DNA of 64,000 nucleotides, from positions 32,001 through 96,000 of the forward strand of contig JBCBZT010000022.1 of NCBI GenBank assembly GCA_039815185.1, given 5' to 3'. The notes beneath the pieces are model-generated. The model did not search any database and was not told the DNA's origin. It was given only the letters and a program-made list of their open reading frames with translations. Numbering within the stretch: the stretch's first letter is position 1; each line of letters starts with the position of its first letter. This document shows positions 7,640 through 15,257 of this stretch, piece by piece. Both the position numbers and the translations under genes were made by a program. Origin of the DNA: Cyanobacteria bacterium P01_A01_bin.123. GTDB lineage: Bacteria; Cyanobacteriota; Cyanobacteriia; Phormidesmidales; Phormidesmidaceae.

Positions 7640-10345
7640 CTAACTCCACCCTTTAAGTTGTTTGATGGCTGTCCATATAGCGGACACATTGCCAGTCTTA
7701 AGTTTGATATTGTACTTTTCCTTGATGAATTTTCTAACGAACATCTTCCCACCCTTTTTGCTGCCATAGCCTTTTTGCTCAAGCGTATTGATTAGATCTT
7801 GAGCCATGCTCATGTCATTGTTTAGGAAAGACAAAATCTTTGCGTAGGCTGCTTTTTCTTCTTGCTCTTTCTGTTGCCTCTTTTGCTCTTCTTTCTGTTG
7901 CCTATTTTCTTTAAGACATGCAATATGTTCATTCACCATATCCATATGGATTTTCCATCGACTCAAGAGCGCTTTGACGGATGGGTTTGTTTGAGTAAAT
8001 TCCTTTAAACCAGAAACGCTGCCTGATTTTAGCTTGTTGATAACAGCGTCTGAGAGGTCGAGATTCTGAGAAATCTGCTTAATAGCCGATAGGACATGCA
8101 CGTGGAAGTTTTCCTGAGTTTTCTCTGAAAGTGAATCCAATTCACTAAAATTTTCACGCTTATACATATTGTTCTCTATCGCTTGCATTTGCTTGCTCAT
8201 TTCTGTAGCTTTGTTAATATTAACGGTTCCATATTTCTTACCTAATTCTTCATACATTCCCGCCTGTTCCTTGCTGGGAATTTCCTGTAGGTACATCACC
8301 ACAGCTGCTTTATTTTGCGTCTCCAAATCCTTCGCACTCACGGGTTGGGTAACGGTTGGACGGCTTGGGATATCTCCCACATTGCTAGAGGTAATCACCT
8401 CAGATCGTGGGGTAACTCCTTGCACCTTAAACTGAGTGCCTGGGGTGAAAATGAGTTCATCTTCGCCTTCGACACCCGATCCCGCAATCGCCCGCAAATC
8501 TTTGGCCCCACCTTTTGACTCAATTTGGAATGCGGTCTTGCCATTTCCAAATTTACTACCCTCAAGCCAATATCGTTTATCAATGGTGGTGCTCATAAAG
8601 GCTTTCTCGGTTTTAATTCCCCCGACATTCAAATAGCCGTACTGTTCACAGGAGGCAAAGCTAAACTTCACCCCTCGATAAACATTCCCAACAACTGGCG
8701 GCAGACGATTGAGACCAGAAGCAGCCAGTTTGACCTTCTGCGCTTTTCCACTCCCACTACGCAAATTCTCGTTCATCGATTGATAGCTCATCCCTTGATA
8801 TTCATTAATAGCGCTCAGTTCTTTGAGCGGGATGTGTTGCAAATAAGCTTTCAGCTCATCTAACTTCATTGCTTCAGCAACCTTTGTGGCTGTATTCGCA
8901 GCTTCTGAGCTGTAGTAGTTTTCGCGCTCTTTCCTAGAGGCAATAAAGGTTCGATGATCAAATTTTTGCTTTGGCTGTTTGTCTGAGTTTAAAGACTGAT
9001 GATGAGTCTGGAAGCCTTGTGTTTTATCCTGGTCTTGGTTTTCATATTGCCGATGCCAATTGGTTTTATAGGTATGGGTCTTAGTGGCGGGTGTGGGTGG
9101 TATGACCGGGCTGGCATCCCCCATTACATTGACTGGGCCTATGCTCTGATTAACGGAACGTACATTCTTATGAAAGTTGTAATCGTCATATAAATCTGGG
9201 GAATTATCCGGCTGCCCTAATTGTTGGTTGACAGATTCGTATAGCTGCTCCTGGTTTTCCAGGTTTTTTGTGCCCTCAGCCACACCTGCCTTCATGGCTG
9301 GATGCACATCGTCATCCCAATCATCATCATCGTCCCGCTGGATCACCTCATCCGTGCGCCGTTGGACAACGCTATTGCCTTGAATGGCAGCCCCCCCTTG
9401 CTGCACCACATGGGTCAATTCATGGGCAATCAGCTCTTGACCCCCCTTGCTGTTGGGGTCATAGGCCCCCCGCTTGAAAAATACATCCTGCCCGGTTGTA
9501 AACGCCTTGGCCTGAATCGTCTGATTCAACTGGTTGGCCTGGGCATCGGTGTGGATCCGGACCCCACTAAAATCAGCACCCATCGCTTGGCTCATGCTGC
9601 GCTGCAAACCCTCGTCTAAGCGCTGACCACCTCCCTTGGCCTGAGCAATCTGCGAGGCGGTTTCATCAGACACACCACCCCCTGCCTCACCGACCCGTTG
9701 TAGCGTCGGCTGCATCGGTGTGTGGCCTGTCTTCAGCCTTGGAGGCCAGATGTTGATTCGCGATTGTCGATCTGCATCATCCCCATCCCTATCTCGCTGC
9801 ACTGTTGGCTGGCCATGGGGATGATTGATGGTGTCCACCACCTGGGCAGCGACGTGGTCTGCTTCTTGCTCATAGCGATCGCCCGCTGGCCCCACGGTCA
9901 GTTTCGCTTGCACTAACGGTTCAATCCCTTTGGCACTGTCTGCTCCCCCCTCCGGAGCCTTTTGCACTGCCGCTTCATCTGCCATCACGTCGCGTTGGAC
10001 TGCGGGTTTACCCGTCTGAGGCATCAGTCCAGGGGTATCATGGCGTGCTATTACACGCTGCCAGTAATTGTCAGTTGGTGTCGCCTGCATCAATGGCGAC
10101 ACGGGTCGTCGCTGGACGGCGCTACTGGGTGGAGAGACCAGACTGCTAAGACTGTAGAATGGCTTCTTGCTGGCTTGCTGCCAGCGCATTTCAAGGGTGG
10201 GAGCGGGCTGAGAACTATCCACGGAAAAAGCATTGTCGGTCTCATCAGTTTCCAGATCTGGCGAGGCGAAGAGATTGTTTTGCGGCGTGTTTATCGGCAG
10301 CTGCTCCTGCTGCTCGTAGGTACGTTTTTTCCGTTGATAGACCAT
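7640..10345 (-). CDS. eCIS cargo/effector 1: leader + DUF4157 + ADP-ribosyltransferase toxin domain
   Basis: DUF4157 (ADFSGVRIHT...AKAFTTGQDVFF...LIAHELTHVVQQ), then an ART domain with YRG, FMSTT and GEDE (R-S-ExE). Start at ATG 10345 inferred from the paralogue at 15086. Confidence 0.85.
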   Translation of the reverse strand: MVYQRKKRTYEQQEQLPINTPQNNLFASPDLETDETDNAFSVDSSQPAPTLEMRWQQASKKPFYSLSSLVSPPSSAVQRRPVSPLMQATPTDNYWQRVIARHDTPGLMPQTGKPAVQRDVMADEAAVQKAPEGGADSAKGIEPLVQAKLTVGPAGDRYEQEADHVAAQVVDTINHPHGQPTVQRDRDGDDADRQSRINIWPPRLKTGHTPMQPTLQRVGEAGGGVSDETASQIAQAKGGGQRLDEGLQRSMSQAMGADFSGVRIHTDAQANQLNQTIQAKAFTTGQDVFFKRGAYDPNSKGGQELIAHELTHVVQQGGAAIQGNSVVQRRTDEVIQRDDDDDWDDDVHPAMKAGVAEGTKNLENQEQLYESVNQQLGQPDNSPDLYDDYNFHKNVRSVNQSIGPVNVMGDASPVIPPTPATKTHTYKTNWHRQYENQDQDKTQGFQTHHQSLNSDKQPKQKFDHRTFIASRKERENYYSSEAANTATKVAEAMKLDELKAYLQHIPLKELSAINEYQGMSYQSMNENLRSGSGKAQKVKLAASGLNRLPPVVGNVYRGVKFSFASCEQYGYLNVGGIKTEKAFMSTTIDKRYWLEGSKFGNGKTAFQIESKGGAKDLRAIAGSGVEGEDELIFTPGTQFKVQGVTPRSEVITSSNVGDIPSRPTVTQPVSAKDLETQNKAAVVMYLQEIPSKEQAGMYEELGKKYGTVNINKATEMSKQMQAIENNMYKRENFSELDSLSEKTQENFHVHVLSAIKQISQNLDLSDAVINKLKSGSVSGLKEFTQTNPSVKALLSRWKIHMDMVNEHIACLKENRQQKEEQKRQQKEQEEKAAYAKILSFLNNDMSMAQDLINTLEQKGYGSKKGGKMFVRKFIKEKYNIKLKTGNVSAIWTAIKQLKGWS

Positions 10346-10527
10346 GGGATTTCGCCTCACGACCAAGTGATTTGCTGTTAGAACTTACCTGAGGGGTACA
10401 GCGTGGTTATCGAGGGATATCCGTGTAAACTACCGTGTTTACGCTGACCCATCCATATAAAAATGGGGTAGAAATTCCTAGTATTTCTAGGGTCTCGCAT
10501 CCCCTACCTTTGTGACAATTCTCTTTT

Positions 10528-10638
10528 AGTAGGGTTTTTGAACCCTGCCCTTTACAGACGGTTACATTTGCAGACGAGCACGCCTAATTTCCTGAATCTG
10601 ATGGGTAGGCTGCCCCCACAAAAGCAGACTCGGCCAAC
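10528..10638. repeat. 111-bp non-coding direct repeat, copy 1 (upstream of effector 1)
   Basis: agtagggtttttgaaccc...tttgcagacgagcacgcct...tgatgggtaggctgc...agcagactcggccaac matches 15284-15394. Confidence 0.85.
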
Positions 10639-14700: not shown

Positions 14701-15086
14701 CGTTGAGCAGGTTGGCCGGGGACGGGCTGGCCGGCATTCGGTTGGTTGATGACATCGACGACTTGGGATGCAACCTGATCGGCTTCTTGCTCATATTTAT
14801 CGCCTGCTGGCCCCACGTTCAGCTTTGCCTGCACCAGCGGTGAACTTGGCTGTCGCTGCACCGCATGCGTCGTAGCCGGCACCGGACTGCCAAAATTGTA
14901 GAATGGCTTGTCGGCTTGCTGCCAGCGCATTTCAAGGGTGGGAGCTGGCTTAGAACTATCCACGGAAAAAGAATTGTCGGCCTCATCTGTTTCCAGATCT
15001 GGCGAGGCGAACAGATTGTTTTGCGGCGTGTTTATCGGCAGCTGCTCCCGCTGCTCGTGGGTGCGCTTTTTCCGTTCATAGACCAT
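11709..15086 (-). CDS. eCIS cargo/effector 2: leader + DUF4157 + unknown Lys-rich domain with hydrophobic helices
   Basis: Same leader as effector 1, DUF4157 with LIAHELTHVVQQ, then an AT-rich region including a long hydrophobic stretch (VLLTLTLICSAISSLAPVTAPIMGPIAAFLGTVTYWLGI). Confidence 0.75.
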   Translation of the reverse strand: MVYERKKRTHEQREQLPINTPQNNLFASPDLETDEADNSFSVDSSKPAPTLEMRWQQADKPFYNFGSPVPATTHAVQRQPSSPLVQAKLNVGPAGDKYEQEADQVASQVVDVINQPNAGQPVPGQPAQRKVDTQPGGENGVQRMEDDEDIQMKPTGSQVGLAGGPVPTTTATEIQRARGGGKALEPYLQRTMGQAMGADFSSVKVHTDVQADRLNQTIQAKAFTTGSDVFFRQGEYNPGMRSGQELIAHELTHVVQQTDQSIQRQSNHLVQRTIYNEASETSDVKDGLKYAEVLQELKKRGVKETPKLQKLILKYLKSHEEISVQDLIEEFETGKRAAQDKFKSEQKKQKKPPLEKSAPKEVNVFYTEKEEKRVPVKEVIAKLRKAAIPDKIISGIFYKYEVHDSNHQSCTLNHLINTEGPKKWKKYKANKAQNLENPYTHLPEKERTKAFLDDDEYWAMQRKLDFFKDTGLHDDDAITAVVENYSPKEVEDLRESRRRQGLSPEEREKEDFDKRQIKKIEEYRTGDKFVAKDKTKKKELQKKHGSFRKAFKDKIKTINTNAQIAEGSIEQANNYIQGDASINAFFSQQFKKASSRKGSKGGITLADVNAHASKVYSKKFKAEVMPDGKLDGQKLNAYKDHSLYIARQSDKRVRETAADRLILEMYFNQVEKLAESKDDKKNKKEDIASIYKYAKSRAYDVNKRLEAQKKERSKLEDEGRISTTFSRGLQATDYAIRGGIVKVLTGGLLAVRKNRAKTGWVSEKDYNLDLETGLAEIEYFSDRKKKYNIRTPLDQIKDILKEFNAKWSSRKGSGINKWTTFFSALSLGLEAGKKFIGMIKSVLLTLTLICSAISSLAPVTAPIMGPIAAFLGTVTYWLGITQAGISALRIVLDGLAQLANNNPALFAELQGETRKSALNTGTELASLGGQVGLDFGTEAITNQDYGNLDAKTNPVKTLENKVELNQGPPLSLDQKIGKYGLQSTSVIKDGALAGINAGGTAIGSLDNNDMKFTQTVNKNRRIGKQKQGQTKATPEEMRFIKQSQRTTMNKAKKLGAKLVPSVSKLRQKPPKTELDSKASNKVPKDDLENMDRISDATDNTRKFAGSLIDGLNELKSLKEAKKNKD

Positions 15087-15257
15087 GGGATTTTGCCTCG
15101 CGATCTAGTTTTTTACGACTAAAGATCACCCACAATGAAAGGTATGGGTTACGTGCATGCTGACATAACTGATCATTTTTAGATCATGCAACTGAAAATG
15201 AAATGGTTTGTGGAGACCTAATTCCATCACGGTATCCTGTCCTATAACTGAAAAACG

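Follow-up and report, generated by a model that had tools for sequence, protein, structure and literature searches.

The window analyzed here, 64,000 nt of contig JBCBZT010000022.1 from Cyanobacteria bacterium P01_A01_bin.123, carries the locus of a contractile injection system (CIS) and the nearby genes of two toxins, P0001 and P0002, which begin with nearly the same 58 residues. The data suggest, with a probability of roughly 70%, that this N-terminal leader serves as a system-specific loading address of CIS cargo toxins, which is read by the adjacent Pvc15-like ATPase (ATPase-A). The cargo toxins are built of an N-terminal domain (NTD) consisting of the leader and a linker, of the eCIS_core domain (PF13699, formerly DUF4157), named after the extracellular CIS (eCIS), and of a variable toxic C-terminus. 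We infer that ATPase-A, encoded at 16102-18090, would recognize the leader and pass the cargo, in unfolded form, into the lumen of the tube. The features recognized are likely a head that is basic and aromatic (M-V-Y-Q-R-K-K/Q-R) and a block of hydrophobic and acidic residues (L-F-x-S-P-D-L/V-E-T-D/E-E/D). The leader, together with about 250 nt of upstream DNA and the ribosome-binding site (RBS), behaves like a 5′ cassette recombining among about 18 paralogous polymorphic-toxin genes. The toxin genes and the parts they share have the following positions in the window:

7640..10345, (-) strand: toxin P0001, 901 aa, with leader, linker, VQAKL/YEQEAD motif, eCIS_core, ADP-ribosyltransferase domain and C-terminal tail
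11709..15086, (-) strand: toxin P0002, 1125 aa, with leader, short linker, VQAKL/YEQEAD motif, eCIS_core and a C-terminal domain of no family
10172..10345, (-) strand: leader of P0001, codons 1-58, with MVYQRKKR head, Q/P-rich spacer, LFASPDLETDE acidic block and tail
14913..15086, (-) strand: leader of P0002, codons 1-58, identical to that of P0001 in 52/58 residues
10157..10365, (-) strand: near-identical DNA tract, copy A (P0001), from -20 to +189 relative to the ATG, with RBS and leader
14898..15106, (-) strand: near-identical DNA tract, copy B (P0002), with RBS and leader

The alignment of the two proteins (BLASTP E 1e-90) excluded chance likeness and covered residues 1-329 of P0001 and 1-272 of P0002. 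As the original prediction had claimed, both toxins carry a near-identical leader of about 60 aa, and the RBS is included in the near-identical DNA, which had been placed correctly: the identity in 30-nt windows was 0.83-1.00 from -20 to +189, compared to 0.40-0.53 on the upstream side (-209 to -21) and 0.25-0.63 on the downstream side of the tract, and the boundaries were sharp. The leader DNA of P0001 and P0002 differs at 11 of 174 positions. The start codon of P0001 is the ATG at 10345, rather than the TTG further upstream at 10366. An assembly artefact was ruled out, because 4.7 kb separate the two copies, which are on a single contig and show these 11 differences. The accompanying claim, that the linkers diverge and the C-termini are unrelated, was correct for the linkers and for the true C-termini, but it missed that the likeness resumes after the linker, where both proteins contain a 34-aa 'PLVQAKLxVGPAGDxYEQEAD...' motif followed by eCIS_core.

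The eCIS_core domain was detected by Pfam at aa 243-319 of P0001 (PF13699 E 9.4e-33, window 9389-9619) and at aa 184-260 of P0002 (E 5e-30, window 14307-14537), with the HExxH sequence at aa 308 and aa 249, respectively. Pfam also placed an ADPrib_exo_Tox domain at aa 497-648 of P0001 (PF03496 E 1.2e-7, window 8402-8857), and a hydrophobicity scan found zero hydrophobic segments in this protein. The C-terminus of P0002 matched no Pfam family and gave no usable match in the ESM Atlas, and the same scan detected there a single hydrophobic stretch (aa 834-864), as in a domain of membrane type. The search of NCBIfam returned nothing specific for the toxins, for the two small open reading frames (ORFs) lying downstream of them or for the unnamed structural genes. 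Both proteins combine PF13699 and HExxH with CIS-gene neighbors, a disordered hydrophilic NTD and a variable C-terminus, which is the build of CIS cargo.

Conservation and physical character of the leader

Selection on the leader was evaluated by segment, as the ratio of nonsynonymous to synonymous differences per site (pN/pS) in 16 paralog leaders (120 pairs):

Codons 1-11, MVYQRKKRxxE: pN/pS 0.23
Codons 12-23, variable: pN/pS 0.60
Codons 24-38, SLFASPDLETDEADN: pN/pS 0.33
Codons 39-58, variable: pN/pS 0.67

The conserved blocks are MVYQRKKR and LFxSPD[LV]ET[DE][ED]. In the 16 paralogs Y3, R5, K6, R8, L25, F26, S28, P29, and T33 are invariant over varying codons, the pS of the leader being 0.36-0.56. 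In the comparison with the copy from a relative in another genus (G012), pS was 0.68-0.71 and pN 0.28, with a pN/pS of 0.14-0.20 in the head and 0.30-0.31 in codons 24-38. These substitution patterns indicate that two short blocks are under purifying selection at the amino-acid level, the other genus included. The original prediction had named a lack of purifying selection beyond recent duplication as a sign against it; such selection was found in both blocks, also versus G012.

The genome of the window (8.09 Mb in 133 contigs, with an estimated contamination of 5.99%; the window lies on contig C9) contains 28 PF13699 matches. A search with the P0001 leader, followed by one with a leader profile, detected 18 ORFs at E <= 3.5e-14, with the next ORF at E 4.3. 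Five of them are located on C9, the CIS contig, and the other 13 on ten contigs without CIS marker genes, which is the outcome of the search for orphan cargo proposed earlier. The DUF4157 domain is within the same ORF in at least 13 of the 18, in one case (L017, C108:28169-32646) the leader ORF and its DUF4157 ORF are in different frames, one is a remnant with a stop codon (C82), and two end at the contig edge before any domain could show. Leader remnants with in-frame stops (TAG, TGA) were seen at C82:224014-224367 and C32:70274-70369. The ORF L021 (C28:7013-7660) is complete with 216 aa; in it the leader runs straight into a segment homologous to the C-terminal tail of P0001 (aa 680-845, aligned at 56% identity), with no DUF4157 and no ADP-ribosyltransferase domain. 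This ORF may have arisen by recombination, or it may encode a small cargo or accessory protein that bears the leader. The leader precedes two distinct DUF4157 subtypes (Pfam E about 1e-30 vs about 1e-12), and the C-termini behind it are ADPrib_exo_Tox, Scabin-like, Aspzincin_M35, or of no recognized family. Many of the genes of such toxins, referred to as class 1, on C110, C28, C32, C132, C47, C52, C18, and at the start of C9 are cut at contig ends. Because the repeated class-1 genes break the assembly, their copy number and context are uncertain.

When the profile was run against 1.84 billion representative proteins to look outside this genome, 26 matched at E <= 1e-3, of which 24 align from residue 1, while the remaining two, which are proteins with internal low-complexity repeats, were counted as false positives. 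Two of the 24 true matches are exact proteins of this genome; the other 22 differ from its ORFs, and several of these external proteins are clearly divergent and still keep M-x-Y-Q-R-K-K-R. The relatives were also searched with the leader, as had been suggested, and two of 60 matched, one clearly (G012, E 1.4e-16) and one weakly and with a stop codon within the match (G015, E 2e-3). The CIS marker Pvc16_N is present in 33 of the 60, and the leader is therefore specific to a system, not general to cyanobacterial CIS. The scan of species-representative genomes with leader patterns matched 77 stretches, one of which was confirmed, a contig from a metagenome-assembled genome (MAG) of Pseudanabaenales, whose 3446 bp are too few to show any context, while none of the 174 stretches matched in the scan of Joint Genome Institute (JGI) metagenome contigs was confirmed.

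The physical character of the leader was examined by modeling residues 1-275 of P0002 with AlphaFold2 from an alignment of 12 rows (mean predicted local distance difference test value, pLDDT, of 61). Residues 1-95 had block-mean pLDDT values of 36-55 and no secondary structure save a short helix at 51-58, residues 97-114 formed a helix, and residues 165-262 formed a confident core (pLDDT 84-94). The mean Kyte-Doolittle hydropathy of the leaders over residues 1-35 was -1.28, compared to 0.05 +/- 0.61 in a background of 2906 long ORFs from this genome, their mean net charge was +2.5 in residues 1-11, about +1 in 6-21 and -4.9 in 24-40, and the first eight residues contain one aromatic residue, Tyr3. 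The leader is predicted from these values to be intrinsically disordered and strongly hydrophilic. The published descriptors of eCIS signals (PMC11297309) are hydrophilicity, an aromatic residue in the first eight, a slightly positive charge over 6-21, and disorder, and the leader fits them, because its hydropathy, Tyr3, charge and low pLDDT agree with them. A Sec/Tat signal peptide was rejected, since there is no hydrophobic core, as seen from the hydropathy over 1-35 and the net charge of about -5 over 24-40. A profile search of the PDB with the N-terminal module gave no match at E <= 0.01.

The ATPase paralogs and the CIS locus

Four Pvc15-like ATPases are encoded in the genome, each adjoining DUF4157 genes of a separate N-terminal class, with no cross-matches:

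ATPase-A, contig C9 (window), adjoining the class-1 toxins
ATPase-B, C95:87622-89718, adjoining a DUF4157 toxin of class 2, followed by a small ORF of that class
ATPase-C, C96:32590-34629, adjoining class-3 ORFs
ATPase-D, C97:37542-39608, adjoining a Pvc16-like gene and near the gene of a 169-aa DUF4157 protein

Class 2 has seven ORFs, class 3 has three, all beside ATPase-C, and class 4 has one. The ATPases diverge mostly in the N-terminal half: ATPase-B and ATPase-A were 69% identical in the AAA part but 31-42% in the N-terminal parts, and the identity to ATPase-A in the N-terminal and AAA parts for ATPase-B, ATPase-D and the homologs from six relatives except G012 was 27-43% and 60-73%, respectively. 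Among the relatives, G012 alone has a close ortholog of ATPase-A (71% identity, compared to at most 56% for all others), and the N-terminal part of this ortholog is 57-58% identical to ATPase-A, versus 27-43% in the eight other homologs (six relatives and the C95 and C97 paralogs). G012 is also the sole relative with a clear leader match. When the flanks of the ATPase orthologs from seven relatives were inspected, DUF4157 ORFs were found in the fetched stretch at one locus only (G046), so that the covariation has n = 1. A complex prediction for ATPase-A (10-row alignment) and the leader (16-row alignment) gave no answer (score 0.00, mark 0.32, no controls) and is informative neither way.

This pairing pattern, a correlation in one genome and one relative, is as expected if each ATPase reads its own address. 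A more tentative interpretation, to which we give somewhat less than an even chance, is that of a multiplexed addressing code, in which each ATPase would read its own leader class and about 27 DUF4157 proteins would be sorted among three or four CIS. The class-1 address with its promoter and RBS would then be a mobile 5′ cassette spreading by gene conversion, and with the two blocks a linear motif recognized by a CIS loading ATPase would for the first time be explicit.

The related loci are located at C95:87622-93659, C96:24008-34629, C97:35884-40813, and C15:7645-16674, with two further sheath loci on C15 and C96. The C95 ATPase, which is the most similar to ATPase-A, adjoins class-2 toxins and lies outside the C15 CIS locus. 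The class-2 toxin beside it (L056:6547-8925, C95) contains an actin-fragmin-kinase-like domain (PF09192 E 5.5e-9), the sequence of which hints at eukaryotic targets.

The locus in the window is a CIS, with the AAA+, Pvc16_N, sheath and three tube genes located within 1-10 kb of the toxins:

16102..18090, (-) strand: Pvc15-like AAA+ ATPase (ATPase-A), PF22977 E 3e-21 at aa 60-172, PF00004 E 2.5e-26 at aa 452-577
18101..19432, (-) strand: Pvc16-like tail terminator/cap gene, PF14065 Pvc16_N E 2.3e-43
19432..20154, (-) strand: LuxR-type response regulator within the CIS cluster, PF00196 and PF00072
21576..25253, (+) strand: sheath gene and three gp19-type tube genes, PF17482, PF04984, PF06841
677..1207, (-) strand: gp25-type baseplate wedge gene, PF04965 E 2.1e-23
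27524..34810, (+) strand: giant protein of 2428 aa in the structural operon, PF13699 E 1.1e-57 in two stretches (28385-28615, 33581-33814)
10718..11659, (-) strand: 313-aa ORF directly 3′ of P0002, no Pfam or NCBIfam match, self-match only in genome BLAST
7025..7585, (-) strand: 186-aa ORF directly 3′ of P0001, no Pfam or NCBIfam family

ATPase-A consists of an N-terminal winged-helix variant domain and a C-terminal Cdc48-type AAA domain, and its PDB matches were Cdc48/p97 AAA domains only. Its C-terminal AAA domain of the classical clade, N-terminal non-ATPase region and position abutting the Pvc16_N gene are those of the Pvc15/Afp15/Alg15-type ATPases. A second ATPase at the far end of the CIS cluster (39101-40978, (-) strand) contains two Cdc48-type AAA domains (PF00004 E 5e-91) and is distinct from the Pvc15-like one. 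The sheath is encoded at 21576-23303 and the tube proteins at 23450-24001, 24151-24681, and 24720-25253, while the gp25 gene begins a baseplate module running leftwards beyond the window. A paralog of the LuxR-type regulator, 43% identical, has the same position in the second CIS locus (C15_8937_9644).

The giant protein is encoded between tube-associated genes and downstream genes, with several unnamed genes on the same strand. Its first DUF4157 domain is at aa 288-364, HExxH is found at aa 354 and 2086, four hydrophobic segments lie in aa 1445-1640, and eCIS_core was the only family detected by Pfam at E <= 1e-3. The tme-like genes are defined by a long ORF with DUF4157 in the N-terminal region, by cluster synteny and by membrane helices (PMC11126660). 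Judged by its sequence, the giant protein fits this published definition of a Tme-like, tape-measure-related effector; it resembles those of the Streptomyces-type clusters in length, N-terminal DUF4157, hydrophobic helices and operon position, but it differs from them in the second DUF4157 near the C-terminus. In the paralogous C15 CIS locus there was no PF13699 match at all. The original prediction also saw a looser match to the leader in the giant protein, which proved weak: aa 26-75 (27599-27748) loosely resemble a leader sub-variant, and in a single BLASTP comparison the N-terminus was 38% identical over 52 aa (E 2e-7) to a divergent paralog on C122, but the leader profile did not match the giant protein (E > 100), and the basic MVYQRKKR head is missing.

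The 313-aa and 186-aa ORFs downstream of the toxins may be immunity or accessory genes. The 186-aa ORF had scattered matches in the genome (24-63 aa, 57-88% identity), two of them just 3′ of class-1 toxins (C112, C28). The toxin pair is flanked by genes of the Uma2 family (putative restriction endonuclease-like) at 6011-6625, (-) strand, and 15433-16101, (+) strand, and this family is abundant in the genome, with 10 further BLAST matches to the 15433-16101 gene.

Recombination and alternative explanations

The comparison of substitution rates along the toxins showed that the near-identity of the two leaders is local. In the P0001/P0002 pair the dS of the leader was 0.146, versus 1.67 for the VQAKL motif, a more than 10-fold difference, and versus a saturated pS of 0.86-0.91 for eCIS_core. 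The trio of P0001, P0002, and the C82 copy had leader pS values of 0.13-0.21 and eCIS_core pS values of 0.81-0.97, while in the other pairs the two were similar, the leader value being lower in 35 of 55 pairs. Additionally, leader and DUF4157 subtypes are shuffled, because L020 has a canonical core behind a leader of type c, and on contigs C113/C132 an a-like leader is joined to a divergent DUF4157 core. The near-identity of the pair's leaders is explained by recent exchange of the ~210-nt tract, containing the RBS and the leader, by recombination or gene conversion, and we concluded from the sequence comparison that P0001, P0002, and the C82 copy took part in this exchange.

The same observations, together with the sharp tract edges that include non-coding RBS bases and with an upstream unit of ~150 nt common to class-1 genes, could suggest that the leader is functionless, being either what recent duplication or gene conversion left behind, or a stretch of homology through which toxin cassettes are swapped. 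We consider this explanation unlikely, because recombination accounts for the near-identity but not for the conservation pattern, which includes residues invariant over varying codons, the low pN/pS of the two blocks in 16 paralogs, the retention of these blocks both in divergent metagenomic proteins and in another genus, where pS is saturated, and the location of the motif at residue 1 in all 24 true matches. Recombination is compatible with a loading address and fails as a sole explanation.

Alternatively, the leader could belong to the DUF4157 HExxH domain, as its prodomain or as a partner within the same molecule, or it could be a signal acting in the target cell. This would be consistent with its position, which is nearly always before DUF4157, with the several [VIL]QR motifs carried by the linkers, and with C-termini that look eukaryote-directed, such as the ADP-ribosyltransferases and the actin-fragmin-kinase-like domain of the class-2 toxin. 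The RKKR cluster of the leader may also resemble a nuclear-localization motif. On the other hand, L021 fuses the leader straight to a domain other than DUF4157, one leader serves two very different DUF4157 subtypes, and the N-terminal classes track the ATPase paralogs and not the toxin type. In AlgoCIS, DUF4157 is dispensable for loading while the NTD is required (bioRxiv 10.64898/2026.05.27.728243), and both forms of this explanation appear very improbable.

Most class-1 genes share a further conserved non-coding unit at about -250 to -95, which is located upstream of the two toxins as follows:

10448..10579, (-) strand: conserved distal upstream unit of P0001, about -235 to -100; nhmmer match C9:42448-42579, E 5e-30; copy used in the model
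15184..15335, (-) strand: conserved distal upstream unit of P0002; two adjoining nhmmer matches, C9:47184-47275 and 47274-47335; copy used in the model

The profile of this unit had 14 matches genome-wide, of which 12, belonging to 11 genes, are 5′ of leader genes and two weak ones lie elsewhere; nine of the 11 genes had built the model, and only two are new. The unit may be a shared promoter, operator or 5′ untranslated region (UTR) of a toxin regulon. It is least probable that the conserved region is an RNA or regulatory element (5′ UTR and early coding sequence) that co-regulates the class-1 toxin genes, the peptide being incidental: the conservation from about -250 across the RBS into the coding region, the position of the unit matches and the LuxR-type response regulator encoded in the CIS cluster are in line with such an element, but the synonymous sites of the leader vary freely while the amino acids of the blocks are kept, the Rfam scan of 10000-15500 found nothing at E <= 1, and the promoter scan of 10300-10720 found no sigma-70-like site. 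The upstream regulatory unit is likely real and added to the peptide signal rather than replacing it.

Several observations weigh against the proposal that the leader is a loading address. The near-identity within the pair is due to recent recombination and is no evidence of constraint, and over the whole 58-codon leader pN/pS is only moderate (about 0.4). For the 13 of the 18 leader ORFs located on contigs without CIS genes, the tie to this CIS is by sequence alone, and the number of leader ORFs, ~18, is approximate, given the 133 contigs, the contamination and the copies at contig ends. The co-occurrence of the leader and ATPase-A across genomes rests on one relative, G012, whose assembly is fragmented (1840 contigs) and whose 3151-bp ATPase contig holds the ATPase alone, with no adjacency visible. 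The original reading of the leader as a packaging signal is partly supported. Its residue-1 position, predicted disorder and hydrophilicity, its presence on ~18 polymorphic toxins, the selection on the blocks, the pairing with an ATPase lineage and the precedent of AlgoCIS argue for it, but the near-identity of the pair reflects recombination, and the DUF4157 module had been overlooked.

Relation to known systems and implications

AlgoCIS, the CIS of Algoriphagus machipongonensis, was reportedly described by Xu et al. in 2022. Its cargo has the order NTD-DUF4157-C-terminal domain (CTD), deletion of the NTD abolishes loading while deletion of DUF4157 does not, Alg15 is needed, and the NTDs are alike between cargos of one system and unlike between systems (bioRxiv 10.64898/2026.05.27.728243). 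The toxins analyzed here are similar to the AlgoCIS cargos Cgo1 and Cgo2 in having a disordered NTD, DUF4157 and a variable C-terminus, with an Afp15/Pvc15-type AAA+ gene in the cluster. In contrast to the two cargos of AlgoCIS, there are ~18 cargo genes with one leader, four ATPase paralogs and four N-terminal classes. The phylum is also different, the nearest public locus being titled Pseudanabaenales cyanobacterium MAG, and the likeness seen is one of build.

A second comparison is with the Photorhabdus virulence cassettes (PVC) and the antifeeding prophage (Afp). Pvc15 selects N-terminal signal peptides in PVC (PMC11495950), and the PVC/Afp signals are the subject of Jiang 2022, Kreitz 2023, and Steiner-Rebrova 2023, as cited in PMC11297309. 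The leader resembles the signals of Pdp1, Pnf, and Afp18 in being ~50 residues long, N-terminal, of low pLDDT and hydrophilic, with a slightly basic start and an aromatic residue in the first eight. The PVC/Afp signals are chosen by a cluster-encoded AAA+ ATPase and fall into sequence groups, which is likewise proposed here. On the other hand, PVC cargo is without DUF4157, PVC is placed in lineage Ia, from Gram-negative insect pathogens, and no conserved signal sequence is given in this literature, while the two blocks described here are strongly conserved over many paralogs. The loading signals are presented as system-specific in the published work, and a similarity of the leader to the published groups of PVC signal peptides is therefore unlikely.

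DUF4157 is well established as a mark of eCIS toxins, many of which have been predicted in filamentous cyanobacteria, Moorena among them (PMC11297309). In the thylakoid-anchored CIS of Anabaena, the DUF4157 proteins Alr3311 and Alr3312 were detected in CIS preparations by mass spectrometry and proposed to be tube-lumen cargo (PMC8894136). The present system is similar in being cyanobacterial and in having DUF4157 genes that adjoin the cluster.

The Rhs and contact-dependent inhibition (CDI) toxins, the MIX toxins of type VI secretion systems (T6SS) and the LXG toxins of type VII secretion systems (T7SS) are polymorphic toxins, which combine a conserved N-terminal trafficking module with recombining cassettes. 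The class-1 toxins have the same features of one N-terminal delivery module, many toxic C-termini, orphan or truncated copies and recombination at module borders. They differ in that the machine is a CIS and in that the exchanged unit is the 5′ end (promoter, RBS, and leader), not a 3′ toxin-immunity cassette.

The order NTD-DUF4157-CTD and the need of the NTD for loading were already known, and the system described here is a well-resolved new example, with no new mechanism. It adds the size of the family, two constrained blocks, for which no search of the print literature was aimed at the motif, the recombination mosaic, and the four pairs of ATPase and leader class.

The N-terminal loading signals make CIS programmable, while the published work is not known to give a conserved signal sequence or a recognition rule. 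The genome of this cyanobacterium offers a natural data set in this respect, with ~18 cargo genes sharing one leader, in which only two blocks are constrained, and with three more classes beside their own ATPases. It opens direct tests of what a loading ATPase reads, and of whether co-resident systems keep their cargo apart. It also shows toxin arsenals diversifying via recombination of a promoter-RBS-leader cassette. If the leader is a true loading signal, its reuse on reporter cargo is conceivable, and, if the addressing code tentatively proposed above is correct, any toxin gaining the class-1 cassette would be plugged into the CIS of this window.

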